A DNA stretch of 64,000 nucleotides from an uncultured Spirochaetota bacterium (lineage in GTDB: Bacteria; Spirochaetota; Spirochaetia; SZUA-6; Fen-1364): positions 64,001-128,000 of the forward strand of contig CAVTHO010000009.1 in assembly GCA_963734545.1 (NCBI GenBank), given 5' to 3'. Each line of letters begins with the position of its first letter. Positions within the stretch are counted from its first letter, which is position 1. This document shows positions 1,008 to 63,117 of this stretch, piece by piece. The position numbers and the translations under genes were made by a program. Under the pieces are notes generated by a model. It did no database searches. It had not been told where the DNA came from and saw only the letters and a program-made list of their open reading frames with translations.

Positions 1008-1757
1008 ATGGCAAGAAAAAAGGGCTCCCGCGCAAAAGCCGCGCGTCATCGCGGCATCGGATTCCTCTTCTGGCTGTGCCTCGCCGCCATCCTGGTCGTG
1101 GTCGGGTACGTGGCGCAGCCGTCCCTGCGCGCCGCATTCGCACGGCTGACCGGAAACGGCGCCCCCTCCACCCCGTCGCCCGCCCCCTCGGCTCCCCAGG
1201 TGACGATACGCCCGCTGGAAAGGGACCGTCCGCAGGGAACCGACATTCCATCTCCCGCGGCAGAGCCGGCAACGGCGCGCGATGCAGTGAGTGCCGCGGA
1301 AAAGCCGTCGACACCTCCCGCGCAGAAACCTTCCACGCGCAAGGCCCGCCTGTTTTTCGTCTCGGTGGACCCGAACGGCAGACTCTCGTCGAAAAGCGTG
1401 ATCCGTTCCGTGCAGGCGAGCGATTCGCCGCTGCGGGACACGCTGGAAACGCTCCTCAAGGGCCCCACCTCGCCGGAGCTCAACAGCGGACTGCTGACGA
1501 TGATTCCCCTTGAAGCCAGGCTTCTGGGCGTGACTGTCCGCGAGGACACGGCCTACATCGACTTCAGCGAGAGCTTTCGGTTCAACACGCAGGGTACCGA
1601 GGCGCTGGACGCCCAGGTCAAACAGGTGGTGTACGCCGCCACGGAGTTCCCGAACGTGAAGAAGGTTCAAATCCTCATTGAAGGGAAAAAAGTGCGCTCG
1701 CTGGGAGCCGAGGGAACACGGATCGACTCGACACTCACGCGCGCGTCATTCCAGTAG
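1008..1757 (+). CDS. GerMN domain membrane-anchored protein
   Basis: N-terminal TM helix, Pro-rich linker, LETLLKGPT..E, AYIDFS and QVVYAATEFPNVKKVQILIEG typical of GerMN. Confidence 0.88.
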   Translation: MARKKGSRAKAARHRGIGFLFWLCLAAILVVVGYVAQPSLRAAFARLTGNGAPSTPSPAPSAPQVTIRPLERDRPQGTDIPSPAAEPATARDAVSAAEKPSTPPAQKPSTRKARLFFVSVDPNGRLSSKSVIRSVQASDSPLRDTLETLLKGPTSPELNSGLLTMIPLEARLLGVTVREDTAYIDFSESFRFNTQGTEALDAQVKQVVYAATEFPNVKKVQILIEGKKVRSLGAEGTRIDSTLTRASFQ

Positions 1758-2640
1758 AAGCTTTCGCACGATCGAGTCCCTCCCGGCCGCATCCTGGCCT
1801 CCGCCGAGACGAAGAAGAAAGAGAAACTCCCTGTTGCCTTTTCTGCCGCGAAGGGGGGACTCCATCGCGTCCTCCACTCCCACACCTTCGTCCGACAGCC
1901 CTGCAATGAGATCCGTGAGAATATCGCGAAGCGCGCCCTTTCCCTGCACGACCCCCCTGAAGTCCCGGGGCGGGCGCCTGTATTCGAACTGCGGCTTGAC
2001 CAGGAAAATTCCGCGTCTCGCCGCGGTGAGCCCCAATATATGCGCTGCTGCCTGGCGGATCGAGCGGAAAGACAGATCTGCCGCCGCGCTGTCGGGAACA
2101 GGATCAAGGTCAAGAGCCCGCACCGTCATGACGTTCGTGGATTCCATCACGCGCACTCTCAGGTCGGCGCGCAGCCGCCAGTCGAGCTGGTTTTCTCCGA
2201 CATCGATTGCGTACACCAGGGATGCGCCGCGGCGCAGCAGGCAATCGGTGAATCCGCCTGTGGAGCTGCCCGGCATCGATCCAGGTCGTTCCCGCGCAGG
2301 CGATTGCCCACAGGTCGAGGCCCGCCGCGAGCTTCTCCCCGCCGCGGGACACGTAGGGCGGCTTCTCGCGGACGCTGATCGCCGCGTCGGCGTGGACAAG
2401 AGTTCCCGGTTTCACGACCTTCTCTCCCCCCACCAGGACTTCCCCGCGGAGGATCTCCGCGAAAAGCTCCTTCTCGTCACGCGACGGGTAGATGGTCTTG
2501 AGCAGGTCGATGAGGCGGACCCTTCGGCGCGGTCCTCCGTGCATTTCTTCTCGGCGCGGTCCTCCGTGCATTTCTTCTCGGCGCGGTACCCCGCGCATTT
2601 CTTCTCGGCGCGGTACGGCGTGCTCGTTGCGCGGTCTCAC
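1746..2640 (-). CDS. tlyA: TlyA family rRNA (cytidine-2'-O)-methyltransferase; indel near 2270; start uncertain (GTG 2640 or ATG 2598/2571/2544)
   Basis: S4-like RLIDLL, YVSRGGEKL, GSSTGGFTDCLL, DLSFRS, LVKPQFE and SPLRGRKGNREF, split across two frames. Confidence 0.9.
2524..2631. repeat. 4 x 27-bp tandem array of hairpin module D
   Basis: Units tcggcgcggt(c/a)c(t/c)ccg(t/c)gcatttcttc at 2524, 2551, 2578 and a degenerate one at 2605. Confidence 0.95.
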
Positions 2641-2641
2641 G

Positions 2642-3451
2642 TCACACCGAGGACATTTGACGCACCCTCTCGATGCGCACCGCCTTGCCGCTCGCGGCAT
2701 CGATCTCGATCAGCACGCCCTGGATCTCCCCGATGGAGTTCTGCACTTCCATCTTGAGAGGCATCTGGGTGAGGCTGCGCGCGATGGCGGTTTCCTTTTT
2801 CATGCCGATAACACTGTCGACGGGACCCGTCATGCCGATGTCGGTGATGTACGCCGTCCCGCCGGAGAGGATCCGCTCATCCGCGGTCTGCACGTGCGTG
2901 TGGGTTCCGATGACCGCGGAGACTTCGCCGTTGAGGAACAGACCGAGGGCCTCTTTCTCCTCCACTGCTTCCGCGTGGAAATCGACGATCACCGCGTTCA
3001 CTTTGCTGCGGAACTGCTTCAGCAGAGCCTTGCCCACGTGCAGGGGATCCCGCAGAGGAGACAGGTTGACCCGTCCTTCGAGATTGATCACGAGGACGGC
3101 AGCGTCCCGCACGTTCACGATGCAGTGACCCTTGCCGGGAATTGCCCCGGCGCCCTGGATGATCGGATAGTTCTCGGGCCGCAGCAGCGTGTCGTTCGTG
3201 GACAGGAGCGGGAGGATCTCCCGCTTCTGCCAGATGTGGTTTCCCGATGTGATGACGTGCACGCCTGACTTGAACATGCGCTCGGCGATTTCCGGCGTCA
3301 GGCCGAAGCCGTCAGCGGCATTTTCCCCGTTGGCAATGACGAGGTCCGCCCCTACGCGGCGTATCATGTCCGGCAGCCCGATGAAAAGGGCCCTGCATCC
3401 CGGCTGTCCCACGACATCACCCAGGATGAGGGCCTTGATGGCGCGCGTCAC
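2642..3451 (-). CDS. ymdB: TIGR00282/YmdB family metallophosphoesterase
   Basis: GDVVG, ANGENAA, TSGNHIW, DFHAEA, GTHTHVQTADERIL and TDIGMTGP motifs; directly downstream of rny. Confidence 0.93.
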   Translation of the reverse strand: MTRAIKALILGDVVGQPGCRALFIGLPDMIRRVGADLVIANGENAADGFGLTPEIAERMFKSGVHVITSGNHIWQKREILPLLSTNDTLLRPENYPIIQGAGAIPGKGHCIVNVRDAAVLVINLEGRVNLSPLRDPLHVGKALLKQFRSKVNAVIVDFHAEAVEEKEALGLFLNGEVSAVIGTHTHVQTADERILSGGTAYITDIGMTGPVDSVIGMKKETAIARSLTQMPLKMEVQNSIGEIQGVLIEIDAASGKAVRIERVRQMSSV

Positions 3452-5385: not shown

Positions 5386-8300
5386 TCAACGAACGACAAG
5401 CTTTGCCAGTATCTGGCTTATCACGATCTCGGTTTCGCCCGCAAACCCCAGCAAAAGGTATGCTTCCTGACCTCTGAAGTTTGCCGGGAAGAGCAGCACC
5501 CGCTTCATATATCTCAGGTCATCAGGGTCGATTTTTACCCTGAGGAATGCGACATCAGCCGAGTTCTTGTTCACAGCGAAATATTTCCTGGGCGCGAAAA
5601 GGGACTTGAACGCGGGCTCCCCGGCGCTGAAAGCCAGGGTCCGCACCGTTCTTTCGCTCATCCCGACCGTCAGATCCAGTGCGTAGGTCTGCACTTTCTT
5701 GATGAACAGACCTGCGCTGACTGCCGAAACCCGGCGTGATAATTCAACGAGCGTCTTCATCTGCGTGGTGTGGGTAAAGGAGCGGGGATAGGACGAGAGA
5801 AACTCGTCGTAGTCCAGCCCGTTCCGCTTCAACCGTATCGGGCTTGCGGTCTCCGCCTGCGCGGGAGGGGCCTCTTCGGCAGCCGCCTGATCCCGCAGAA
5901 AATCATCAGAGAGATCGAGGGTATCCTCGGCGCTGATCAGGTCTCCTATGCCGCTCAATCCCGATTCCGCCTCGGCGGGCTGTCCGCCGGAGACTTCACT
6001 CAGCTCTCCCTCCATCTCGTGCTTGACGACTTCCTCCACGATCTGGCGCAGCTTCTCGTCATCGCGATTCTCGCTCGGCTTGTTTCCCGCCGTGTACACT
6101 TCTTCCTTGATACGGAAGAGACCGTCCTCCATGACGATGGCCGACTTGCCCTCTTCCAGAAAGCGCTGAAGCTCCTCCACCGTCCAGATCTTGATCGCGC
6201 CGGAGGCAAGAAGAGCATCAAGGGCCTGCGGGGTGTCGGCTGCCGATGGAACGACCGCGACCTCCTCGACGCTCTCCACCGCTTCTTCTTCAACGCTCTC
6301 CAGCTCTTCGAAATCCACGACTTCTTCGAATGCCAGCTCCGCCGGTTCAACGGGCGTGGGTCTTCCCCGTTCGGGCTCCACCAGGTCCTCGGCCTCCACG
6401 AGCACTTCCGGCTGAATCAGCGGCTCGGGCGGGGGTGCTTCGATCCGCGCGCGCTCTTCGTATTCCTCCGGCTCCACCGTGCGCGATTCAAGGGCCTCGA
6501 TGCGGCCCGATGCCATCGATCCATGCCCATGCGAATCATCGTGCCGCTCTTCGTCGACGACGGGAAGCAGCTCGAGTCCCTCCTCGACGGGCTCCGGGGG
6601 GAGCGGACGGACTTCCGGCAGAGGCTCCAGCTCTTCCAGCAATTCGCCCGACGTGTCGATGGCCTCCGCTTCGAGCGCGAGTGCGAGATCAGAGAACATA
6701 TCGACCGCTTCGCCGGGAACTCGTATCTCGACAAAATCGGTAACGGCGCCGCCCTTCTTCCTGGCCTCGGGTTTCTGGGGAGCTGAAACCGCGGCGACCT
6801 CCGCCTCGTCCTCCATCGGCTCGAGTTCCGCCGGCTCCTCCTCCAGCCCCTCGGGAACTGCCTGCGGCGGGGACAGCCTGCCGGAAGCATCCGACGCAGC
6901 TCCGGTCACGCTCCGCGCTTCGGCCGCGACACCCTCCGGCTCGGGCAGCGCTTCAGCCGGCTCGGCGGGTTCAGCTTCCGCAGTTTCCGCATCTTCGACC
7001 GTCTCGACTTCTTCGATGGTCTCATACTCTTCGACCGCGGCTGCTTCTTCGACAGGCGCGGCTTCTTCGGCCTCTTCGACCGCGGCAGCTTCTTCGACCG
7101 TTTCAGCTTCCTCGACTGCCTCGGCCTCTTCGACTACCTCGGCTTCTTCGACCGTCTCAGCCTCATCAATTGTTTCGACTTCCTCGACTGCCTCGGCCTC
7201 TTCGACCACCTCGGCTTCATCAATTGTTTCGGCTTCCTGGACTTCCTCGATCTCTTCCACCGCTTCAGCTTCTTCGACTTCTTCGGCCGCCGCGGATTGG
7301 CTGACCGCCGCGGGCGCCGGTTTGGCCCGTCTGGCCCCGGGCTCCGCGCTTTCGCTGACTTCCTCCGCCCTGATCTCCTCGACCTGCAGGGCGCGAGCGG
7401 GGGACACTTTCTGTTCGGGCAGAATGAAGTTCGCATTCTTGAGGGCTGCCTGGATCAACGACTCGAGGCGCGAAATGTCGATTGCTCCCGCCGCAGCAGC
7501 GGCAGGAGCTTCGGCGCGCCGGGACACCAGGTCGAGGATTTCGGACCAGCTCTTGGAAAGGTACTCGTCGATTATCGGCTTCTGTTTCTTCGACACGCGG
7601 CCGATTCCGCGCTGGATCTGCCAGGTGATCTCGTCCTTGCGCGACTCCATCTCACCTCGCCATTTGTTCCAGTCCGCGCCCCCGGGGCTTTCCACGAGCT
7701 CGGTGATCAACTGGATCTGGAAGCGCTTCACGCGCTGGCGCAGCACGTCGAGTGGATCGGTCCTGAGATTGAATATCAGATACAGGAAAAGGAAAACAGT
7801 GAGAAAAAACGTCGCGAGCAGCAGACCCTTCATGAGGTCCGCCATCTCGAAAAGCGAGCTCGGTTCCACGAGGCCGGCCATCCCGCCCGCGGCCAGGCGC
7901 TGGGAGAAGACGCGATAGGCGGCCTGCGGCCCGCCCTGGCTCGAAAGGGTAAGCGGCGCGGTAAATGAGGATGATCCGGGATTGCTGTTCCAGATCGCAA
8001 CGAGGTCATCCTCCACCGCCTTCGAGCCGGCGGGGTCGAAATTGATGAGGACGCCGGCACTTCCGACGAGCGCGACCTTCTCCACAGGAACGCCGGGGGT
8101 AACCGTCAATTCGCTGAGAAGCTTCTGCTGGGAAACGTAGAAAAGAAGCGTGCCGAACTGAGGGGGAGAATTCGCCTTTGCCGGCGCCTGCGCCGGCAGC
8201 GCGTAGACGAACCAGCCGTGCGGTCCGTCGATCAGGACCTTCGGCTTCTGATCCGGCGCGGCCGGAAACGCCGTCACGGGAATCGAGGTGTTGTCCTCGT

Positions 8301-16348: not shown

Positions 16349-17156
16349 CTATTTTCCGGAACGGCATTCCCAGCCGCGCCAGGAGGCTCCGCGCTTCCTG
16401 GTCCGTCTTCGCGGTGGTCACGACCGCGATATTCATGCCGCTCACCCTTTCGATCTTGTCATAGTCGATCTCGGGAAAGATGATCTGCTCCGTCACCCCG
16501 AGGGAATAGTTCCCGTGCCCGTCGAATGCATTGGGGTTGGCCCCTCGGAAGTCCTTGATCCTCGGCATGGCCACGTTGACCAGCCGGTCCAGGAACTCGT
16601 ACATCACGTTCCCGCGCAGTGTCACCATGGCGCCGACTTCCTGTCCTTGGCGGACCTTGAAGGTCGCGATGGACTTCTTTGCCTTCGTGCGCACCGCTTT
16701 ACGCCCCGTGATCTGCATCATCTCCTGCGTGGCGGAATCGAGAAGCTTCTTGTTCACGATGGCCTCACCGAGACCCATGCTGACGATGATCTTCGATACC
16801 CGCGGTATCTGCATCGTGCTTTTGTAGGAAAATTCTTCCTTCAGGTCTTTTGTCACCGTGTCCAGGAAGAGGGCCTTCAGGCGCGGCTTGTAGCCGGGAG
16901 GATCGGCAACGGGTTTGGCTTTCGGCTTGCTCTCCGCCTCCTGCCGCTGACCCTTCTGGCCCTTGGGCTGCTTGTCGCCCTTGGCAGCTTTCTCGGAACG
17001 GGGAGCCCCTTCCGCCGCGTTCCGCGGGGCCCCGTGACTCTTCTCCCCCTTCGGCTGCCCGGCTTTCTGGCCCTGCTCCTTCACGGGAGCCTGGTCTGCG
17101 GCGGCCTTGGCCTCCGGGGCGGCGCCCTCGGCGCCCGACTGTTTTTCCTTGCTCAC
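16349..17156 (-). CDS. rplE: 50S ribosomal protein L5 with long N-terminal extension; stop probably displaced by a 1-nt indel (ORF as read ends at 16290)
   Basis: [31 protein letters not shown] and GMPFRK. The GTG start overlaps the rplX stop and has a GGAGGAG SD. Confidence 0.95.
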
Positions 17157-17473
17157 AGATCTCCTCCGCACTTGCGGCATACGCGCTTCTTGGCAGTCCC
17201 CTCGACGAGGTACCCGATCCGGGTGGGCCCGCATTTCTTGCACATGATCATCAGCTTGCCGACCGGCAGGGGCGCTTCCACCGAGGTGATGCCGCCCTTC
17301 TGGTTCTGCTTCTTCTGCTTCATGGCCTTCTTCACCATGTTGAGGCCTTCCACCACGGCGCGCATCTTCTCCCGGTCAATGTTCACTATACGGCCGGTCT
17401 TGCCCTTGTCCCGGCCCGCAATGACACGCACCGTGTCGTTCTTGCGCAGCTTGATCCTACCCTTGGTCTCCAT
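17153..17473 (-). CDS. rplX: 50S ribosomal protein L24
   Basis: KOW motif [11 protein letters not shown]; C-terminal CxxC pairs. Confidence 0.97.
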
Positions 17474-17485
17474 ATCACCGTCCTC

Positions 17486-17854
17486 CTACAGGACTTCCGG
17501 GGCGAGGGACACGATCTTCATGAAGTCCTTCTCCCGCAGCTCGCGGGCCACCGGGCCGAAGATACGCTTGCCCTTCGGATTGTTGTTCGCGTCGATGACG
17601 ACGCAGGCGTTGTCATCGAAGCGGATGAAGGTTCCGTCGGGACGGTGGAACTCCTTGCGGGTCCGCACCACCACCGCCTTCTCGATCCCGCCCTTCTTGA
17701 TTGCCGCGTTCGGCAGCGCGTCCTTGACGGCGACCACGATGATGTCCCCGATCCGCGCGTACTTGCGCCGCGTGCCGCCCAGGACCTTGATGCACTGCAC
17801 CTGTTTGGCGCCGCTGTTGTCCGCGACGTTGAGAAGCGTCTTCATCTGTATCAT
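17486..17854 (-). CDS. rplN: 50S ribosomal protein L14
   Basis: [17 protein letters not shown] and IVSLAPEVL. Confidence 0.98.
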
Positions 17855-17865
17855 GACCGGCTCCC

Positions 17866-18156
17866 CTACTTCGCTTTCTCGACTATCTCGACAAGCCGCC
17901 AGCGCTTGTCCTTGCTCAGCGGCCGGGATTCCACCACGCGCACCGTGTCCCCGATCCCGCACTCGTTCTTCTCGTCATGCGCCTTGATCTTCTTTGTCCT
18001 CGTCAGGTATTTCTTGTACAGCCGATGGAGCTTGCGTTGATGGATCTCGACGACGATCGTCTTCTGCATCTTGTTGCTCACGACGCGGCCCTGGAGGACC
18101 TTCTGGACCGGCACGGTATTCCGTGCATTATTTGTCTTCTTTGTCACTTCTTCCAC
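17866..18156 (-). CDS. rpsQ: 30S ribosomal protein S17
   Basis: [19 protein letters not shown] and [12 protein letters not shown]. Confidence 0.97.
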
Positions 18157-18167
18157 GTGCCGCTCTC

Positions 18168-18368
18168 CTAGCGCTTTCTGATTCCGAGGTCGAACTCGCG
18201 GATGATCGATGACACCCGGGCGAGCTTGCGCCGCGCGGTCCGCTTGGAAAGCGGGTTATCCACGTGGCCGATGATCATGTTTGCGCAGACGTCATTGTAC
18301 TGCTTCTTGAGCTCCTCCCGCTTGGCGAGCAGCTCCGGATAACTCAGCTCTTTGAACGAGTCCTTCAT
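18168..18368 (-). CDS. rpmC: 50S ribosomal protein L29
   Basis: ELSYPELL...[15 protein letters not shown]; position between rplP and rpsQ. Confidence 0.93.
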
Positions 18369-18372
18369 ATGC

Positions 18373-18789
18373 CTACTCCACGCTCTCCCGAACCAGGAAC
18401 TTGGTCTTGATGGGCAGCTTGCTGCCGGCACGCTTCATTGCCTCTTCCGCCATCTTGCGGTCGACGCCTCCCAGCTCGAACATCACGGTCCCCGGCTTCA
18501 CCGGCGCGACCCAGTACTCCGGTGCTCCCTTGCCTTTTCCCATGCGGGTCTCGGCAGGCTTCTTCGTGAACGGCTTGTCGGGGAATATCCGTATCCATAC
18601 CTTCCCGCCGCGCTTGACGTGACGGGTAATGGCGATACGGCACGCCTCGATCTGGCGGTTGGTGATCCACTCTCTCTCAAGGGCCACCAGGCCGAAGTCG
18701 CCGAAGGATATCTCCGTGCAGCGGGTGGCCCTGCCCTTCATGACCCCGCGCATCTGCTTCCTGTATTTCGTTCTCTTGGGGCTCAGCAT
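18373..18789 (-). CDS. rplP: 50S ribosomal protein L16
   Basis: [11 protein letters not shown] and RMGKGKG. Confidence 0.98.
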
Positions 18790-18795
18790 GATTGA

Positions 18796-19560
18796 CTACT
18801 CCTGCCCTCTCTCGCGGCCTCGGAGGTCCCGGCCGTCGCGGCTGTCCCTGCCGTCCCGGTCTTCCCGGGCGTCGCGGCCTTCACGGCCACGGCGCACGAG
18901 GAGGCCGGCATCGTCTTTCTTCGCCGGCCCGTACACTTCTCCGTTGAAAATCCAGACCTTGATGCCGACGCACCCGAACGTGGTGATTGCCGTGGCCGTG
19001 CCATAGTCGATGTCCGCCCGGAAGGTATGAAGGGGAATTCTCCCCTCCTTGAACTCCTCCCGGCGGGCCATTTCCGCTCCGGAGAGCCGGCCGGAAATCT
19101 TCACCTTGATTCCCTGCACGCCCGTCTTCATGGCGTTCAGGATGGCCATCTTGCAGGCCCTTCTATAGGAGGCGCGCGCCTTGATCTGGCGGGAGATGTT
19201 CTCCGCCACAAGCTTTGCGTTCGTCTCGGGACGCTTGATCTCCTTGATGCGGAGCTGAATCTTCTTGCCGATGCTTTTCTGCAGCTTGCCGCCCAGCTTC
19301 TCGATGTTGGCGCCCTTGGCGCCGATAAGGACCCCGGGCCGCCCGGTGTGGATGATCACGGTCACCCTCTGCGGGTGGCGGATGATCTCCACTTCCGCAA
19401 TGTCCGCTCCCTTTGTTTCCTCCGCGTCCAGGATGATTTTTCGGAGACGCAGATCCTCATGCAGAGTTGCGGCATAGAGCTTGGGATCCACGAACCAGCG
19501 CGACGACCAGGTCTTGTTGATCCCCAGCCGCAGCCCTATCGGGTTAACCTTCTGACCCAT
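18796..19560 (-). CDS. rpsC: 30S ribosomal protein S3
   Basis: [24 protein letters not shown] and [14 protein letters not shown]. Confidence 0.98.
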
Positions 19561-19999
19561 TGGCTACCTCTTTTGCACCGATCTCGTCGACGACCACGGA
19601 TATGTGGCAGGATCTCTTGATGAGCCTGTCCGCGCGGCCGCGGCCGCGGGCCCACATCCTCTTCATCGAGGGCCCCACGTCGACCAGGAGCTCCTTCACG
19701 TACAGCATCTGCTCGTCGAGGTTCTTGTTCTTCGCCAGCGCGTTCGCGGCGGCCGACTGGATGAGCTTCGACAGGAGCCGGGCACCCTTGTGGGGCAACA
19801 CGCCCAGCAACGCCATGGCCTCCACGTACGGCTTGCGGCGGACATTATCGGCAATGCGCCTCACCTTTGTCGCTGACACCCTCTGAAAGGGTACGCTGGC
19901 GCGGTACCCCGTGGTGATCTTGCGGGGCGGCCGCGTCTTCCTGACGGGCTTGCTGCCGGGCTCGCGCGCCGCTTTGAGCTTCTTCGGTGCATCGCTCAT
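19544..19999 (-). CDS. rplV: 50S ribosomal protein L22 with N-terminal extension
   Basis: [15 protein letters not shown] and [15 protein letters not shown]. Confidence 0.96.
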
Positions 20000-20277
20000 T
20001 TCTTTACTACCTTCTTGTCAGAGCCCGAATGCCCCCGAAAGATCCGCGTAGGGGCGAACTCCCCGAGCTTGTGGCCGACGAGGTTTTCCGTGACGTACAC
20101 GGGAACCCAGGTCTTGCCGTTGTACACGGAGATCGTGTAGCCCACCATCTCGGGGATGATCGTGGAGGTTCGTGAGTATGTCTTCACCATCCGCTTCTCG
20201 CCGCTCTTGTTCATGTCGACGACCTGCTTGTACAGGCTTTTCGCGATGAACGGTCCCTTCTTGATCGATCGTGACAC
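19996..20277 (-). CDS. rpsS: 30S ribosomal protein S19
   Basis: RSIKKGPF and [12 protein letters not shown]. Confidence 0.98.
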
Positions 20278-20289
20278 GCTCCGGCCCCC

Positions 20290-21117
20290 CTATTTCCTTC
20301 GATCCTTCACGATGAAGCGGCTCGTGGTGTTGCGCTTCTTGCGGGTCTTGTACCCCTTGGTCGGCTGACCCCAGGGACTGACGGGATGCCGTCCGCCCTT
20401 GGTCTTTCCCTCTCCACCGCCGTGCGGGTGGTCGACAGGGTTCATCGCCGTGCCGCGCACCTTCGGCCGCTTGCCCAGCCACCGGCTGCGCCCCGCCTTG
20501 CCGAGGGACACGTTCATATGGTCCTTGTTTCCCAGCTCGCCGATTGTGGCATAGCAGCGCTCGTTCACCATCCGCATCTCGCCCGAAGGAAGCCGCACGG
20601 TCACGTACAGCCCCTCTTTGGCCACCACGGTGGCGCTGGTCCCGGCGGAGCGGACCATCTGCCCTCCCCTGCCGAGATTGAGCTCTATGTTGTGAATCTG
20701 CATCCCCAGGGGAACCTTGCCCAGGGGAAGAGCGTTACCGGGTTCGAACCCGACGTCAGGTCCGCTCACGACGGTCTTCCCCACGGTGAGGCCCTCGGGC
20801 GCAAGGATGTAGCGCTTCTCCCCGTCCTTGTACACGATCAGGGCGATGAATGAGCTGCGGTTCGGGTCGTATTCGATGGCGCTCACCCTGCCAGGAATGC
20901 CGATCTTGTCACGGCGGAAATCGATCTGTCGGTACGCCTTCTTGTGGCCGCCGCCCTTGCGTCGGACGCTGATCCTGCCGCCCGCTCCACGACCCGCGTG
21001 CTTCGACTTGCCCTTGGTCAGTGCCTTTTCCGGAGACTTCTTGGTGATCTCTTCGAAGGTGAGACCCGTCTTGAACCGCAGTCCGGGGGTTAAAGGCCGG
21101 TATTTCTTGATTGCCAT
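20290..21117 (-). CDS. rplB: 50S ribosomal protein L2
   Basis: IEYDPNRS and [14 protein letters not shown]. Confidence 0.98.
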
Positions 21118-21137
21118 GAATGCTTCCTGCCCTTTCC

Positions 21138-21506
21138 TTAGACGCCCTCGAAGATGGCGATCTTTTCCTCAGGGGCGATCGTGATGATCGCCTTCTTCCA
21201 GGACGCGGTATAGCCGAGCCTGTAGCGCACCCTCTTGGGCTTTGTCGCCGTCTTCAGCACGTTACACTTGAGGGGATGCACGTTGTAGAGCTTGCGCACA
21301 GCGTCCATGATCTGGTACTTGTTCGCCCGGCTGTCCACCTTGAACACGTACTTGTGGCTTTCCCGCATCACGTTCGTCTTCTCGGTCACCACCGGCTCGA
21401 TGACGATTCTCTCGATCCGGTGCGGTACGCCGTGCGTTTCCGGCTGGCGCGGTACTCCGCGCGTTTCTGGCCGGCGCGGTACTCCGCGCATTTCTTCTGG
21501 CGTCAT
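21138..21506 (-). CDS. rplW: 50S ribosomal protein L23 with repeat-derived N-terminal insertion
   Basis: PVVTEK, YVFKVD..ANK and WKKAII; ATGA overlap with the rplD stop. Confidence 0.96.
21418..21498. repeat. 3 x 27-bp tandem array of module D inside rplW
   Basis: Units at 21418, 21445 and 21472; 21471-21497 matches the tlyA unit 2578-2604 at 25 of 27 nt. Confidence 0.95.
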
Positions 21507-22276
21507 TTGTCCGCCCCCTTTGCCTTGGCGGCTTTCCGCGCCCGGGGAGCCGGTGCGGCGGCGGCTTTCGCCTTGGGCCTGGTCCTGGTCTCGGCGGCGC
21601 CGCGCGCGGTCGCGCGCTCAGCGGAACCGTGCGGCACTGCCTCGGCGGAGCCCTCTGCCCCATAGAAATTGTTGAGCTTGGTGGCCGCGGTTTCCAGCAG
21701 AAGCAGCTTCTGACAATAGAAGAGCGCGTGCGCCGTCAGCCTGTTGAAGCTGAGAAAGTCCAGCCACGGGACGTTTCGACCGGCTCTCCGGGTCATCGCA
21801 TCGTCGTCCTTGAGAATGACCACGGTGCGCTCCTGCGCGGCGAGATTCTTCAATAAAAGTACCAGGTCCTTGGTCTTTCCGCTCTCCACGGTGAAATCCG
21901 TGACCACGCGCAGCTTGTCCTCTTTCGCCTTCAGGGAGAGAATGGAGAGGAGGGCCAGCCGCTTCACCTTGCGGGGAAGCTTGTAACTGTAGTCGCGCGG
22001 CCGGGGCCCGAAAATCTTTCCGCCGCCCACCCAGACGGGTGAGGTTCTCTGGCCCGCGCGCGCGCGGCCCGTGCCCTTCTGTTTCCACGGCTTCTTGTTG
22101 CTGCCATGCACCTCGCCGCGATCCTTGATCTTCGCGGTGCCGAGACGGCGGTTGGCCAGCTCGTTCCTGATGGCGTGATAGATGGAGCCCTCGCTCACAT
22201 CGCGGCCGAACACCACGTCGGAGAGCTCGATCTCGCGCAGCGCCTTGCCGTCCAGTCCGTAGACCTGTGTCTTCAT
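21503..22276 (-). CDS. rplD: 50S ribosomal protein L4 with C-terminal Ala/Lys/Arg tail
   Basis: [14 protein letters not shown] and [13 protein letters not shown]. Confidence 0.97.
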
Positions 22277-22286
22277 CGTTTTCGCC

Positions 22287-22904
22287 CTACTTCTTTCCGG
22301 CCTTGAGCACGACGACAAAGCCGCCGCGTCTGCCGGGCACGGCGCCGTTGATCAGCAGCAGGCCCTTTTCCTTGTCCACTTTGAAGAGTCGCAGGTTCTG
22401 CACGGTGAGGCGCGCGTTGCCCATGCGCCCCGGCATCTTCGAGCCCTTGACGATCTTGCGGAACGCGCCGGTGCCGACCGAGCCCATTTCGCGGTGAAAC
22501 TTCGAGCCGTGGGCCCCGGGGCCGCCCGCGAACTTGTGCCGCCGGACAACTCCCTGGAAACCCTTGCCCTTGGTGGTGCCGCGGACGTCGACGTACCGCA
22601 CGCCCTCGAAGATTTCCACGCCGACCTTGTCGCCGACCTTGCACTCCTTCTCGAAGTCCTTGAACTCGAGGAGGAACCGCGTCGGGTCCGTGCCCTCGGG
22701 GAACTGCCCCGCGTAGGGTTTGCGGACGCGCGTCTTCTTCAACGGGTCTGCGCCGAGAACCATGGCGCTGTACCCGTTCTTTTCCGCCGTGCGTTCCCGC
22801 ACGACCACGTTCGGCTCCACCTGTATCACGCTGAGCGGGATTCTCATCCCCTCCTCGTTGAACAGCTGGGTCATGCCGATCTTTTTGCCGATTAGCGCAA
22901 GCAT
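22287..22904 (-). CDS. rplC: 50S ribosomal protein L3
   Basis: [20 protein letters not shown] and KMPGRMG. Confidence 0.98.
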
Positions 22905-22918
22905 TCCTGCAGCCTCAC

Positions 22919-22993
22919 TGCGACGCGGTACGCCGCGTCATTCGTTGCGACGCGGTACGCCGCGTCATTCGTTGCGACGCGATACGCCGCGTC
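22919..22993. repeat. ~3 x 27-bp tandem array of module D (rpsJ-rplC spacer)
   Basis: tgcgacgcggtacgccgcgtcattcgt x2 plus a partial third copy. Confidence 0.95.
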
Positions 22994-22995
22994 GC

Positions 22996-23304
22996 TCATT
23001 GCTTGATTTCGACGTCCACGCCGGCGGGCAGCTCCAGACGCATGAGGGCGTCCATGACCGCGGGGGTGGGCTCGAGGATGTCGATCAGCCTCTTGTGGGT
23101 CCGCATCTCGAATTGCTCGCGCGATTTCTTGTGCACGTGCGGCGAGCGCAGGACCGTGAACTTGTTGATCCTCATGGGAAGCGGGATGGGGCCCGAGACC
23201 CGAGATCCCGCCTTCAGCACCGTCTGCACGATGGACTTCGCGCTCTGATCGATGAGCTCGATGTCGAAACCCCGCAGGCGCACTCGAATCCTTTCCCTGG
23301 CCAT
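22996..23304 (-). CDS. rpsJ: 30S ribosomal protein S10
   Basis: GPIPLP and [21 protein letters not shown]. Confidence 0.98.
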
Positions 23305-23317
23305 TCTCTTACTCCGT

Positions 23318-23367
23318 CCGGTCACGGTACCCCGTGACATTCCCGGTCACGGTACCCCGTGACGTTC
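23318..23367. repeat. 2 x 25-bp tandem array of module D variant (tuf-rpsJ spacer)
   Basis: ccggtcacggtaccccgtgac(a/g)ttc x2. Confidence 0.92.
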
Positions 23368-23423
23368 CTTCGCGCCGTGCCGGCAGCACGCCGGGCGTTA
23401 CATCCGCGTCTTCGCGCGGCGCC

Positions 23424-24617
23424 CTACTCAATGATGTCCGTTACCTGTCCTGCCCCGACCGTCTTGCCGCCTTCCCGGATGGCGAACTGAAGCCCCTTGT
23501 CCATGGCGATGGGGTAGATCAGCTCGACAGCGAGATCGGTGATATGGTCGCCGGGCATGACCATCTGCTTGCCTTCGGGCAGCGTGACGGACGCCGTGAC
23601 GTCCGTGGTGCGGAAGTAGAACTGGGGCCGGTATCCCGTAAAGAACGGAGAGTGCCGCCCGCCCTCTTCCTTGGTCAGCGCCACGACGGTGCACTTGAAC
23701 TTCTTGTGCGGCGTGATCGAGCCCGGCTTGGCAAGGACCTGTCCGCGCTCGACGTCGTCTTTTTCTATGCCGCGCAGAAGGGTGCCGATATTGTCGCCCG
23801 CCTGCCCCTCGTCCAGAAGCTTGTTGAACATTTCGACACCGGTCACGACCGTCTTGCGCGTGTCCTTGATGCCGACGATTTCGCATTCGTCTCCGACATG
23901 CACGACACCCGTTGCCACGCGTCCGGTGACCACGGTTCCGCGTCCGGAAATGGAGAACACGTCTTCGATGGGCATCAGGTACGGCTTGTCAACCGGTCGC
24001 GGCGGAATGGGGAAATACTCGTCCATCGTGGTGAGAAGCTCCTCGATGCACTTGGTGTTCTCCGCCACCTCGGGATGCTCCATTGCCTTGAGCGCCGAGC
24101 CCTTGATGATGGGGATCTTGTCGCCGGGGAAGTTGTAGAATTTCAGGACGTCCCGAATCTCCACCTCGACCAGCTCGATGAGCTCCTTGTCGTCCACCAT
24201 GTCGATCTTGTTCAGGAATACGACGATGGCGGGCACACCGACCTGCCGGGCCAGGAGAATGTGCTCCCGGGTCTGCGGCATCACGGAATCAGGCGCGGAC
24301 ACGACGAGCACGGCACCGTCCATCTGGGCGGCTCCCGTGATCATGTTCTTTATATAGTCCGCATGCCCCGGGCAGTCGATGTGGGCATAGTGGCGCTTTT
24401 CCGACTGGTACTCCACATGCCGGGTGTTGATGGTGATCCCCCTCGCCTTCTCTTCGGGGGCATTATCGATGTCCTCATACTTCATCAGCTTGTCGCCGTA
24501 CTTCTTCGCGCAGTACATGGTGATCGCAGCCGTGAGCGTGGTCTTGCCGTGGTCGATGTGACCGATGGTGCCCACATTGATATGAGGCTTCGACCGGACA
24601 AATTTCTCCTTCGCCAT
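23424..24617 (-). CDS. tuf: Elongation factor Tu
   Basis: [27 protein letters not shown] and FAIREGG. Confidence 0.99.
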
Positions 24618-24658
24618 AAAACTCCTCCTTGCAGTTTCCTGACGCGCTCAAATTCCCT

Positions 24659-24803
24659 GCGCGGTACCCCGCGCCTTTTTTTCCTGTGCGCGGTACCTTG
24701 CACGGTAACCCGTGCAGTTTCGCGCTTTTTTCCCCACCGCAGTACGGCGTACCCGCTACACGGGTACGGCCTCCGGGCCGAGCGCGTGCTCGCGCACTCC
24801 CGT
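24659..24803. repeat. Intergenic mosaic: three module D hairpins plus module A (fusA-tuf spacer)
   Basis: gcgcggtaccccgcgc (24659), gcgcggtacc (24688), tgcacggtaacccgtgca (24699), module A at 24744-24803. Confidence 0.9.
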
Positions 24804-24846
24804 CCTCCGCGCTTCTCTGTTCCGCCCCGCTCGCTCAAATCCCCGG

Positions 24847-26934
24847 CTATTTTTTCGAGCCGCGGGTCTTGGTCACAAGCTCTTCCTGGATCGATCGAGG
24901 GGTGTCCTGGTAATGGGAGAATTGCATGGTGTGTGACGCGCGCCCCTTGGTCATGGAACGCAGCGTCGTCACGTACCCGAACATGGAACGCAAGGGTACG
25001 AGGGCTTTCACCACCTTACTCCCAGGCCGATCTTCGATTCCCTCTACGTGGCCCATTCGCGCGCCGAAGTCCGAGATGACATCCCCGAGGTGCTCCTCGG
25101 GAGTCGCGCACTCCACGGCCATGATCGGTTCAAGGATAGTCGGTTTGGCTTTTGCACAGCCCGACTTGTATGCCATCGATGCCGCCACTTTGAAGGCCAT
25201 TTCGCTGGAGTCCACGTCATGGTAGGACCCGTCCAGCAGCGATGCCCGGAAGTCCACCATCGGGTAGCCTCCCAGCACCCCGTTTTCCATGGCTTCCTTG
25301 ATGCCCTTCTCCACCGCGGGAACATATTCCCGCGGCACGCGGCCGCCGATGACCTTGTTCTCGAAAATGAACCCCGTTCCGGCAGGGAGAGGCTCGAAGC
25401 TCATGATCACGTGCCCATAGGCCCCGTGGCCGCCGGTCTGCTTCACGAACTTGCCCTCCGCCTCGGCGCTGGCCCGGATGGTTTCGCGGTAGGCAACCTC
25501 GGGTGTTCCGACGTTCGCCCCCACGTTGAACTCGCGGAACATCCGTTCCACGAGGACCTCCAGGTGCAGCTCGCCCATGCCCCAGATGATCGTCTGGCCC
25601 GTTTCCTTGTCGAAACGCACCTTGAACGTCGGGTCCTCCTCCGAGAGCTTGTGCAGGGCCGAGGAGAGCTTCTCCTCGTCTTCCCTGGTCTTCGGCTCGA
25701 TGGAGACGGAAACAACCGGGTCGGGAAAGACCATGGATTCCAGGATGACCTGCCGCTCTTCGTCGCACAGCGTGTCACCCGTGGTGGTCTTTTTCAGACC
25801 CACGGCTGCCGCGATGTCACCCGGATAAACGGCCTTGATCTCTTCCCGCTCGTTCGCGTGCATCCTCAGTATCCGTGTCACCCGCTCCCGCCTGTCAGCG
25901 GTCGAGTTGTAGATGTACGACCCCGCCGTCAGCGTTCCCGAATACACACGGATGAAAGTCAGCTTCCCCACAAAGGGGTCCGTCATGATCTTGAATGCAA
26001 GCGCCGCGAAAGGCTCGTCATCCCTGGGAAAGCGCTGGATATAGTCCCCGCTGCTGGGGACCGTTCCCATGGTCGGCGGAACGTCCGCCGGCGAGGGAAG
26101 GTAGTCCACGACTGCGTCAAGAAGAGGCTGGATGCCCTTGTTCTTGAATGCGCTTCCGCACACGACAGGGAATATCCTGCCGCTCACCGTGGCTGTCCGC
26201 AGGGCCGTTCTGATGGCATCTTCGCCGATTTCTTTGCCGTCGACGTAGTCCGCCATCATTGCGTCGTCCGTCTCTGCCAGCTTCTCCACCATCGTAGCCC
26301 GCGCCGCTTGGGCGGCTTTCATGACCTTGGCGGGGATCTCCACCTCACGGAATTGCGCCCCGAGAACGTCTTCGTCCCAGATCAATCCGCGCATCCGGAC
26401 CAGGTCCACCAGCCCGGCAAAATCCCCCTCGATTCCGATGGGAACCTGTATGGCGACCGCGTTTGCCCCGAGCTTGGCGTGCATTTCCTCCACGACTTCC
26501 TCGAAGCGCGCTCCGGTCCTGTCCATCTTGTTGATGAACGCCACACGGGGGACGTTGTATCGGTTGGCCTGCTTCCAGACCGTCTCGCTCTGAGGCTCGA
26601 CGCCTTCGACGGCCGAGAAAACCCCGATTGCTCCGTCCAAAACTCTCAAAGAACGTTCCACTTCGACAGTAAAGTCGACGTGTCCCGGCGTGTCGATGAT
26701 GTTGATCTGCACGCCGCGCCATTCACAGAAGGTCGCGGCCGCCGTGATGGTGATGCCGCGCTCCTTCTCCAGATCCATCCAGTCCATCTTGGCTTCGCCA
26801 TCATGGACTTCACCGATCTTGTGTGTCCTGCCGGTATAGTACAAAACCCGTTCTGTCGTCGTCGTCTTACCGGCGTCAATATGGGCCATTATCCCGATAT
26901 TGCGTGTCGACGACAGGGGATACCGCGATTCCAT
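24847..26934 (-). CDS. fusA: Elongation factor G
   Basis: [31 protein letters not shown] and GMGELHL. Confidence 0.98.
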
Positions 26935-52745: not shown

Positions 52746-54146
52746 ATGAAGAGATGGATCGGGCTTTCCCTGCTCCTCGTGCCTCTCCTCGTGTCCGCCG
52801 CGGGCTTCTGGGACGGGAACGCCGCCCTGCAGAGGGGCGATGCTGCCTTCGAGAGCGGCCTGTACGCCGCATCCAACTCGTTCCCGAAAGACACGCGCAT
52901 CCTCATCGAAAACCTCGACACAGGAAAGACAGCCACAGCGACAATCACGGATCGGATCGAAGGGCGGTCCGACATCCTTGTTCTGCTGTCGCCGAAAACA
53001 GCCGAAGCGCTCGGCATTCCGCAGGGGACGCTTGCCAGCGTACGGGTGACGGTCACGTCCTCCCCGAGCGCCGTGACTGCGCAGCCTTCTGAGCGGGCCT
53101 ACAGCCCCGACCCGGATCTCAATCCCGCGGCAGCGTATCCCGCCGATGAAAGGGCTCGTTCGGCAGACACGAGCACCGCTTCGATGGAGAGCCTGCCTGC
53201 CCCGCAGGCGCCGGCTGCTCCCGCGCAGGCGCCGACCACGCTCGCCGAGGCGCCGCTGCCAGTCGGCACTGAGAGCCCCCCGGCCGAGAAGCCGCCGGAC
53301 CAGCAGGTCGCGGATCAGAAGGCAACGGATCAGAAGACGGCAGACCAGAAGGCGGCGGACCAAAAGGCAGCGGAACAGAAAGCGGCGGACCAGCAGGCTG
53401 ACGAGGCGATCATCGCCGCGGCAGCCGCGCGCACGCCACAAAAGCAGCTCTTCCTTCCCCCGCGGGAGGACGAGAAGTTCGTCTATCACAAGCCTGTCGA
53501 AACCACTGCAACGCAGACGGTCCAGGCTACCGCGGCGGAAACCCAGCCGCGCATCACCTCGGTCATCGGTGAGCCTGCTGCCGCGCCTGCCCCTGCCGGC
53601 ACGGGTGATATGCCGCTTGCCGAGGCCACGGCCCCGGAGGAATCTCGCGCGCAGGAGATCGTCAGCGCGGGGCCCGCGACCCCCCCCATGGGAACCGGCG
53701 GGGAATCCGCGGCTCTCGCCGCGCCCGAGCTGCTGACGGAAGGGCAGCCGGCTGTTGCGCAGGAGCCGGTGCAGACAGAGGTGAGCAGCCCCGTCGTGAC
53801 CCCGTCGACGGCGCAGGAAGCGCCGAAGCTCGCCCTCGTCGCCCCCGAGGCGCCGTCAGCCGTGCAGGCAGCGGTTGCTCCTGTGGTCAAGGCCGCGACC
53901 ATCCCCCGGATCGCAAAGACTGAAACATACTATCTCCAGCTCGGTGCCTACGCCTCGGAAAAGGTGGCGCAGGACCTTGCGGCGAGCCTCCCCTCGACGT
54001 ACCCCACGCTGGTTGTCGCGCCCGCGGGCGCGGGAACGGGGATGTTCAGGGTCCTGATAGGACCGCTCAACCGGGCCGAGAGCGGTACCGTGCTCACCCG
54101 ATTCCGCTACCGCGGATTCCCGGATGCGTTCCTGAAGCAGGAGTAG
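52746..54146 (+). CDS. SPOR domain protein (signal peptide, RlpA-like N-terminal domain, low-complexity linker)
   Basis: C-terminal YYLQLGAY...FRVLIGPL...GFPDAFLK; N-terminal AASNSFP.DT.I.IENL.TGK. Confidence 0.85.
   Translation: MKRWIGLSLLLVPLLVSAAGFWDGNAALQRGDAAFESGLYAASNSFPKDTRILIENLDTGKTATATITDRIEGRSDILVLLSPKTAEALGIPQGTLASVRVTVTSSPSAVTAQPSERAYSPDPDLNPAAAYPADERARSADTSTASMESLPAPQAPAAPAQAPTTLAEAPLPVGTESPPAEKPPDQQVADQKATDQKTADQKAADQKAAEQKAADQQADEAIIAAAAARTPQKQLFLPPREDEKFVYHKPVETTATQTVQATAAETQPRITSVIGEPAAAPAPAGTGDMPLAEATAPEESRAQEIVSAGPATPPMGTGGESAALAAPELLTEGQPAVAQEPVQTEVSSPVVTPSTAQEAPKLALVAPEAPSAVQAAVAPVVKAATIPRIAKTETYYLQLGAYASEKVAQDLAASLPSTYPTLVVAPAGAGTGMFRVLIGPLNRAESGTVLTRFRYRGFPDAFLKQE
53298..53402 (+). 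repeat. 7 x 15-bp coding tandem repeat (DQKAA-like)
   Basis: DQQVA DQKAT DQKTA DQKAA DQKAA EQKAA DQQAD. Confidence 0.9.
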
Positions 54147-62840: not shown

Positions 62841-63117
62841 GCGGGAGTGCGCGAGTACGCCCTCGGCCCGAAGGCGGTACCCGTTCGGCGAGTACGCCGT
62901 CTGCGGGGCCTCCTTTCGCAGGCTCTCGCCGTCTGCTACGCAGACGGCTGCCGCCCTTCGCACGCCTTCAGCGTGCTACGCATCCCTGTGCTCGTCGGCC
63001 CTCGCCCTCCGTGGCTACGGCCCCTTGAAACGGACCGCTGTTTTCCGCTATCCTCCCGATCGCTTTTCCAACTCTGCGCGGTACCCCGCGCGTTCATTGC
63101 TGCGCGGTATGCCGCGC
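62841..63117. repeat. BIME-like mosaic containing modules A, C, B and D
   Basis: A at 62841-62900, C at 62920-62957, B at 62981-63020, D twice at 63076 and 63102. Confidence 0.88.

Follow-up and report, generated by a model that had tools for sequence, protein, structure and literature searches.

An array of dispersed hairpin repeats carried in frame in rplW, the uL23 gene of an uncultured Spirochaetia bacterium

How does the gene of a universally conserved ribosomal protein come to hold a tandem array of a DNA repeat with its reading frame kept? The question is raised by a 64,000-nucleotide (nt) stretch of DNA from an uncultured Spirochaetota bacterium (GenBank assembly GCA_963734545.1, contig CAVTHO010000009.1, positions 64,001 to 128,000), referred to below as the window, in which rplW, the gene for ribosomal protein uL23 (L23), carries three copies of a hairpin repeat directly behind its start. 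The assembly consists of 10 contigs, is 89% complete and 4.9% contaminated, and is labelled G000 where it has to be told from other genomes. From the evidence presented here, it is probable that an array resembling repetitive extragenic palindromes (REPs) was seeded at the rplD/rplW junction, was amplified in tandem and is carried as a disordered N-terminal tail of uL23.

The identity of the gene was assigned by profile searches. The Pfam family PF00276 matched residues 34-117 of the translation on profile positions 2-85 of 86 (E = 2e-26; 92.6 bits against a cut-off of 30.8), and the NCBIfam L23 equivalog NF004363 scored 97.6 bits against a cut-off of 81. The gene sits between rplD and rplB, as in the S10 operon, within an S10-type cluster on the minus strand in the order tuf-rpsJ-rplC-rplD-rplW-rplB-rpsS-rplV-rpsC. 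Within this cluster L23, L4 and S10 were identified by Pfam and the remaining genes were read from their translations. A whole-genome family search returned this gene as the single L23 gene of the 89%-complete assembly; the second, unmodified rplW that the initial annotation had suggested looking for was not found there.

The coordinates of the array and its units are compiled in Table 1. The inserted segment has no stop codon and a length divisible by three (translation of 21417-21500), and it lies in the rplW frame behind an ATG that overlaps the rplD stop, as originally described. Tandem Repeats Finder (TRF) reported positions 21417-21495 with a period of 27, 2.9 copies and 86% matches. Each unit holds a hairpin with a 6-bp GC stem and a 4-nt loop, which on the plus strand reads GCGCGG-TACT-CCGCGC. 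In the core of the third unit, two C-to-T changes on the plus strand give G-T pairs on that strand and C-A mismatches in the mRNA. The three units share 19-22 of 27 nt with one another. As they have diverged to this extent and the frame is still open, the insert is not brand new and has been in place long enough to diverge. An identity of 25/27 to a unit at tlyA had been reported earlier, and the comparison of unit 1 with the three tlyA-side units (2525-2605) gave 25/27, 25/27 and 26/27. Allowing up to three mismatches, the 16-nt hairpin core occurs at 27 places in the window against 2.2 expected, a count reached by none of 100 shuffles.

To place the insertion, rplW was compared across the genus, using 21 species including G000. 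The gene was found in 17 of the 20 others; the remaining three genomes are 69-84% complete. All 17 begin M-T-[I/L]-[EDQ]-R-I-[IV]-[IL]-E-P-V-V-T-E-K with the same ATGA overlap and no array, and in the two closest species the sequences flanking the array match DNA that is adjacent there. As all 17 congeners run uninterrupted from MT into IERI, the 84 nt in G000 are an insertion between codons 2 and 3, with boundaries taken from the DNA junction compared across 13 congener loci. The insertion had first been described as three times nine residues on an ancestral start MTPE. The three 27-nt units stand, the size becomes 84 nt (28 codons) instead of 81, and the congener junctions assign P-E to the insert. 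Congener matches to L23 query positions 8-14 turned out to be the rplD 3' end read in another frame and were not counted as arrays.

Forms of the same locus were also seen in Logan contigs from four DNA metagenome runs, at a likeness of at least 85%; such contigs give the presence of a form, not its frequency. No public run contains the exact stretch or as much as half of its sampled words, the best value being 0.47. Two of the contigs cross the array into unique flanks: one of 321 nt from run X4 (record 27), which spans 21308-21627 and differs at 17 positions besides a single 3-nt deletion, and one of 113 nt from run X1 (record 5), which spans 21414-21529. Run X3 gave two shorter forms. One of its contigs links 21437 to 21495 and so lacks 57 nt, with a single 27-nt unit left; at a loose end at 21416, ATG-ACC runs straight into ATC-GAG in gene sense, which corresponds to an allele with no units. 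All length differences in the spanning contigs (57 nt and 3 nt) are multiples of three. The array therefore varies in copy number (0, 1 or 3 units) among related populations, and the suggested search of sister genomes for such variants returned zero units in all 17 congeners and zero or one in the X3 contigs. To describe the insertion as obligatory goes too far, since the zero- and one-unit alleles and the array-free congeners indicate that the ribosome does without it. With its 27-nt unit and in-frame allelic differences, the array does not resemble a contingency (phase-variable) repeat. Indels of 1 nt at 21462-21472 (depth 80-120), like the parts of the stretch with no contig cover, were set aside, as they come from other family copies mapping there and are uninformative on rplW.

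The same contigs bear on the possibility that the array was produced by faulty assembly or binning, through collapse or expansion of a repeat or through a chimeric join. The state of the assembly (10 contigs, with the completeness and contamination given above), the frameshifted appearance of tlyA in the window and the error-prone assembly of repeats all lend this some colour. However, the array is crossed, together with unique sequence on either side, by contigs that stem from other runs and studies (X4 record 27, X1 record 5), which argues that it is not an assembly artefact and bears on the question of read support raised at the outset. The frame is also kept, and the three units are diverged rather than identical. 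An artefact is accordingly considered very improbable.

Whether the array is translated was judged from the start region. Upstream of the insert, nothing has changed in the start ATG, in the ATGA that it shares with the rplD stop or in the Shine-Dalgarno-like AAGGGGG, and similar purine-rich boxes precede rplW in the congeners. The array is thus most likely translated from the ancestral ATG into uL23, with initiation probably leaning on coupling to the termination of rplD. The initial annotation had held that the repeat must be translated. Its reading of the frame and start context is confirmed, including the lack of any in-frame ATG, GTG or TTG from the array up to the GTG-GTG of P-V-V-T-E-K; translation itself is a reading of the sequence rather than an observation. 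The 151-nt mRNA region is predicted to fold well (-63.8 kcal/mol, z = -2.99).

That GTG-GTG pair opens another possibility, namely that functional uL23 starts past the array, at Val39 or Val40 or at a non-canonical ATC, or that the tail is cleaved after translation. In Firmicutes, the ribosomal protein bL27 undergoes such processing at its N-terminus. No Shine-Dalgarno-like box was read ahead of the GTGs, and initiation there would remove the conserved IERIVIEP, including the first beta-strand of the predicted model. Although a survey of REPs (PMC3733652) cautions that intragenic REPs at N-termini are in many cases the product of misannotation, here the ancestral ATG, ATGA and Shine-Dalgarno-like sequence remain intact in frame, and initiation upstream would still give the long form. 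A start beyond the array, or removal of the tail, is therefore regarded as unlikely.

To obtain a view of the extended protein, its structure was predicted with AlphaFold2 using 28 homologues, as had been proposed with the original observation. The model has a normal L23 fold from residue 36, and residues 1-35 are without secondary structure, with block values of the predicted local distance difference test (pLDDT) of 46-57. Of 14 solved bacterial uL23 chains, 13 have just 2-6 residues ahead of the core, so the N-terminus of uL23 is normally short. The array most likely adds a 28-residue, Pro/Arg/Glu-rich N-terminal tail, the disorder of which is a prediction of the model.

The tail could have been co-opted. 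As a basic, Pro-rich peptide it might tune the binding of chaperones or targeting factors, or the mRNA hairpins might set the ratio of uL4 to uL23 translation. It would emerge about 12 residues before the glutamate of T-E-K, which we take to be the docking residue of uL23 for trigger factor and the signal recognition particle (SRP), and P38, T41, E42 and K43 are invariant just beyond the array. The array has stayed open despite the divergence of its units, at least two other runs contain it in their contigs, and the genus offers two cases of an affected exit-tunnel protein, the present uL23 and the uL22 of G017. Set against these observations are the zero- and one-unit alleles, the 17 congeners with an rplW free of the array, the occurrence of the same repeat in unrelated proteins and in all reading frames, and the predicted disorder of the peptide. 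Because the tail stands on the free N-terminus of a surface protein and alleles with no or one unit exist, it is most likely tolerated rather than needed. Neutrality is likewise favoured over function by the lack of the array in the other species of the genus and by the reading of the same DNA in all frames elsewhere. Co-option is accordingly thought improbable.

The repeat family itself was counted with a structure-aware regular expression and controls in place of nhmmer, which from a nine-unit seed gave 137 matches at E <= 10 with a best value of 1e-4, weak values given the shortness of the motif. The genome has 214 perfect hairpins of the type N4-GG-TAYN-CC-N4' compared to eight in a reversed-sequence control, in agreement with the earlier proposal that the array is made of a dispersed DNA repeat, as in the Rickettsia palindromic elements (RPEs). 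Loops of the types TACT/AGTA, TATT/AATA and TACC/GGTA dominate among all GG-N4-CC hairpins. The commonest unit is GCGCCGCGG-TAYN-CCGCGG-ATTC, which forms head-to-tail arrays with periods of 23-31 nt; TRF found 46 arrays of the family in the genome. A total of 112 of 217 loci are intergenic, though by crude gene calls about 86% of the genome is coding, and many arrays begin 4 nt past a TAG stop. The strict family pattern was present in 15 of the 20 congeners and in none of 20 genomes from other genera in the order, with controls at zero; counts were highest in G002 (65), G000 (53) and G014 (52). Judged from these sequence counts, the hairpin family is restricted to the genus, dispersed, REP-like and expandable in tandem.

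Features that accompany REPs elsewhere were sought around the hairpins. Among loci of the rplW type, which have an 'ATTx' spacer, GTAG lies within 10 nt upstream in 1 of 82, and CGTC stands on either side in 5 of 217 loci of the family. For the REP-associated tyrosine transposase (RAYT), the model NF047646 gave nothing above its cut-off in the 89%-complete genome. The sole Y1_Tnp gene proved to be of the IS200 type (145.6 bits) with a RAYT score of 35 against a cut-off of 80, so it was rejected as a link to RAYT, and no family hairpin occurs in the 1.8-kb stretch scanned around it. Rfam returned no covariance-model match at E <= 1 in window positions 17000-26000. No role as terminator is claimed; one unit on the plus strand is terminator-like, but the count of two is below the shuffled mean of 3.0. 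The orientation of the hairpins relative to transcription had no useful bias (27 and 35 loci between co-directional genes). One-mismatch stems comprised 52 with G-T and 32 with C-A, compared to 14 and 15 in the control, too weak a difference to call the strand that folds.

A second group with the same hairpin core was noted. These AGTT hairpins have a GTAG tag 5 nt upstream and a AGTTGGATGGCGAGG tail, and are mostly singletons (e.g. C5:332447, C7:158176 and C7:943508). Among the loci listed, the hairpin-AGTTGG sub-family is intergenic throughout, with GTAG 5 nt upstream in 17 of 33. By its sequence layout, this sub-family looks like a classical GTAG-type REP for which the assembly holds no RAYT.

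Arrays of the family were also found inside other proteins, 10 array-bearing open reading frames (ORFs) being scanned against Pfam. In a hybrid histidine kinase (L032, G000:C9:197076-199700) the array lies inside the HATPase_c domain, where 145 residues align to 108 profile positions; residues 617-649 of this protein are four 24-nt units read as NPRDTATP repeats. One array lies within a MacB_PCD (MacB periplasmic) domain, one in the linker joining two glyoxalase domains and one at the N-terminus of a tetratricopeptide repeat (TPR) protein. C-terminal tails hold three more (a histidine kinase, Lnt and a pyridoxal phosphate (PLP) enzyme), and an FtsQ-like protein has two. The 1330-codon ORF L033 (G000:C7:117720-121715) comprises an ABC-permease fragment (206-325), a 3.5-unit array and a complete alpha-L-rhamnosidase (449-1300), and may represent either a fusion or two separate genes that the repeat connects. 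One of the 10 ORFs had no Pfam match. Across these unrelated proteins the hairpin repeat is read in all frames. Outside G000, the rplV gene (uL22) of G017 (C2, ~2960-3040) has two 27-nt units that follow codon 5 in frame, shortly past the ATGA in which rpsS and rplV overlap. The insertion of arrays is therefore not peculiar to L23, since other G000 proteins and the uL22 of G017 carry the family in frame.

Taken together, these observations are best explained by the following sequence of events, which is put forward as probable. A REP-like hairpin unit of about 24-27 nt, with its 6-bp GC stem, TAYN loop and T-rich spacer, would have seeded the rplD/rplW junction, a copy landing right after codon 2 of rplW. 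Tandem growth to three 27-nt units would have followed, presumably by slippage or by recombination between units. In a coupled, essential operon the surviving copies would be those that keep the frame, avoid stops and spare the start signals, and the rplW copy does all three. With a unit that is a multiple of three, no stop and untouched start signals, ribosomes starting from the normal ATG would read through the array and produce uL23 with a 28-residue tail before the canonical fold.

Several points weigh against this explanation. None of the best 120 of 177 L23 homologues matched in a collection of 5.8 billion proteins has the extension (lengths 78-98 residues), so the extended form is rare, and none of these 120 is identical to the L23 of the window. 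The spanning contigs, at least 85% alike, may belong to sister strains or species rather than to this strain, and a second rplW may exist, the assembly being 89% complete. On the side of translation, the hairpins begin 16 nt past the ATG and could reduce initiation, a GTG in frame is available downstream (Val39/40), and the two RNA runs listed match only 0.05-0.10 of the sampled words. A point in favour of the explanation, that array periods are more often divisible by three inside predicted ORFs (16 of 19) than between genes or at the edges of ORFs (8 of 27; p = 0.0003, Fisher test), is weakened because the test is partly circular: an out-of-frame array ends the ORF call and is then scored as 'edge'. 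Gene calls outside the window come from our own crude codon-usage caller. Two of the best 120 homologues are named 'Spirochaetia bacterium' and 'Spirochaetes bacterium'.

Further arrays stand near rplW in the ribosomal cluster, and the stem variant differs from one array to the next, consistent with local amplification. At the rpsJ/rplC junction an ORF of 35 codons (22892-22999) starts with an ATG overlapping the rpsJ TGA, spans the array and has its stop 10 nt beyond the ATG of rplC. Hairpins at this junction also occur in relatives, and the equivalent ORF of G016 and G001 shares the frame of rplC. As its ATG is part of the conserved rpsJ end ...CAATGA, this bridging ORF may be incidental. 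The array between tuf and rpsJ is probably upstream of the true rpsJ start (MARERIRV...), the Pfam S10 match beginning at residue 19 of the long ORF. In a bolder reading, the arrays would be an undescribed class of expandable repeats, comparable to mycobacterial interspersed repetitive units (MIRUs), that sit at coupled junctions and write N-terminal peptides on exit-tunnel proteins (uL23, uL22 and possibly uL3), with the uL23 tail selected and altering contact with trigger factor, SRP or the translocon. This reading is thought to have little chance of being correct.

Table 1. Positions of rplW, its inserted array and related features in the window
Feature	Position	Strand	Remarks
rplW (uL23), coding sequence	21138..21506	-	122 codons; ORF list and Pfam PF00276
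In-frame insertion	21417..21500	-	84 nt = 28 codons (3 x 27 + 3); between codon 2 (ACG) and codon 3 (ATC)
Unit 1, 5'-most in mRNA	21474..21500	-	hairpin core 21474-21489; in-frame ATG (Met6)
Unit 2	21447..21473	-	hairpin core 21447-21462
Unit 3	21420..21446	-	degenerate hairpin core 21420-21435
Extra CGG after unit 3	21417..21419	-	3 nt
rplW start ATG	21504..21506	-	overlaps rplD stop TGA (21503-21505) as ATGA; kept in congeners
Shine-Dalgarno-like AAGGGGG	21514..21520	-	7 nt upstream of ATG, within rplD 3' end; putative function, from sequence
rplD (uL4)	21503..22318	-	PF00573, E = 8.7e-60
Sister array, rpsJ-rplC junction	22914..23002	-	period 27, 3.3 copies; TRF
Sister array between tuf and rpsJ	23318..23368	-	period 25, 2 copies; TRF
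Single family hairpin, tuf leader	24659..24674	-	
Sister array, tlyA 5' end	2524..2614	-	period 27, 3.4 copies; in-frame ATG per unit; closest match to rplW unit 1

Other features of the window were recorded alongside. The gene tlyA (1746-2700, minus strand) is split over two frames, with an S4-like part in the ORF 2110-2700 and an FtsJ-like methyltransferase part in the ORF 1746-2399; a frameshift within the overlap of the two (~2110-2400) may mark a pseudogene or an assembly error. A hairpin-like match in the N-terminus of the G000 rplV (19899) consists of conserved G-Y-R codons that are present outside the genus too, and was not accepted as a copy. The uL22 protein (19544-19999, minus strand) is extended at its N-terminus by a basic segment of about 30 residues, which is genus-wide and absent from genomes outside the genus (L022, L024). 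In uL4 (21503-21670, minus strand), an Ala/Lys/Arg-rich C-terminal extension runs about 55 residues past the Pfam domain, which ends at 216 of 271, and differs in length and sequence among congeners. The Arg/Asp/Gly-rich tail of uS3 (18796-19560, minus strand) comes from a 9/18-nt tandem repeat (18826-18888) unrelated to the hairpin family. Equally unrelated are the TRF repeats at 7027-7288 (periods 18/54/72 nt) and 53287-53398 (periods 15/45 nt), which are probably coding low-complexity regions. At 63076-63117, two family hairpins stand 26 nt apart, a period that is not a multiple of three, in a predicted 300-codon ORF (C9:126821-127723).

If the tail is made as proposed, even a ribosomal protein that is universally conserved, encoded by one gene copy and placed at the tunnel exit can take up an array of a selfish repeat with its frame kept. 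The series of zero, one and three units of a nine-residue module on uL23 would then be a natural gauge of how much N-terminal decoration is tolerated near the docking site, and the case would illustrate how a repeat family can persist within operons whose genes are tightly coupled. The hairpin family would represent a new type of bacterial small repeat, 24-27 nt long, arranged head to tail, confined to one genus and with no RAYT found in the searched genome. For annotation pipelines the locus is a caution.

Among known systems, the REPs of the GTAG and CGTC superfamilies (Di Nocera et al. 2013, PMC3733652) are short, GC-rich stem-loops, dispersed, mostly extragenic and often abutting stop codons. 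The hairpin family is likewise a short, GC-rich, dispersed palindrome that is predominantly extragenic. Unlike REPs, the rplW-type units stand head to tail in tandem with a T-rich spacer and a 6-bp stem, lack the GTAG or CGTC tag and have no associated RAYT among the genes found. According to the accessible part of the same paper, REPs inside ORFs occur as singles, dimers or clusters encoding 20-30 residues, and terminal insertions are thought harmless. The word 'ribosomal' is absent from its main text. The literature search, which covered sources in part and had the supplementary target-ORF table of PMC3733652 outside its scope, found no report of a repeat insertion in bacterial L23 or another ribosomal protein and no description of this hairpin repeat family in spirochetes.

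The RPEs, described by Ogata et al. 2000 as cited in PMC3733652 and PMC3184786, are a further parallel for the coding copies. In the accessible accounts, they are lineage-restricted palindromic repeats that lie in frame in genes which stay functional, add segments to the peptide and also occur between genes. The arrays in rplW, the HATPase_c and MacB_PCD domains, the C-terminal tails and the uL22 of G017 are also in-frame insertions that leave the ORF intact. RPEs are single elements of ~105-146 bp (PMC3184786) in an obligate intracellular alphaproteobacterium, whereas the units here are 24-27 nt, occur in tandem and belong to a 5-Mb spirochete genome of free-living type; the family is set apart from RPEs by size rather than by sequence comparison.

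MIRUs (Supply et al. 1997, as described in the accessible parts of PMC3184786 and PMC12548453) are units of 40-100 bp that stand in tandem at operon junctions with a strain-variable copy number, their open frames overlapping the flanking stop and start. They insert at start codons with a -4 overlap and disturb expression little, according to a 2025 review (PMC12548453). The arrays at the rpsJ/rplC, tuf/rpsJ and rplD/rplW junctions occupy similar sites, the ORF at rpsJ/rplC being no more than compatible with this type. Unlike a MIRU, the rplW array lies past the start codon and is free of stops, which makes it part of the gene itself instead of a coupled frame.

Long N-terminal extensions of uL23 itself are familiar from archaea and eukaryotes. 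Yeast L25 and L23a carry one before the same core and work in the ribosome. Those extensions are ancient, conserved and functional, in contrast to the one described here, which is species-level, repeat-derived and polymorphic.

In-frame palindromic repeats are already established, through the Rickettsia RPEs and, in the sources as far as accessible, through REPs in several phyla, so the rplW array widens a phenomenon already known and does not open a new one. It differs from the known cases in the architecture of the unit, the lack of a RAYT among the genes found, the confinement to one uncultured genus of Spirochaetia and the host gene.

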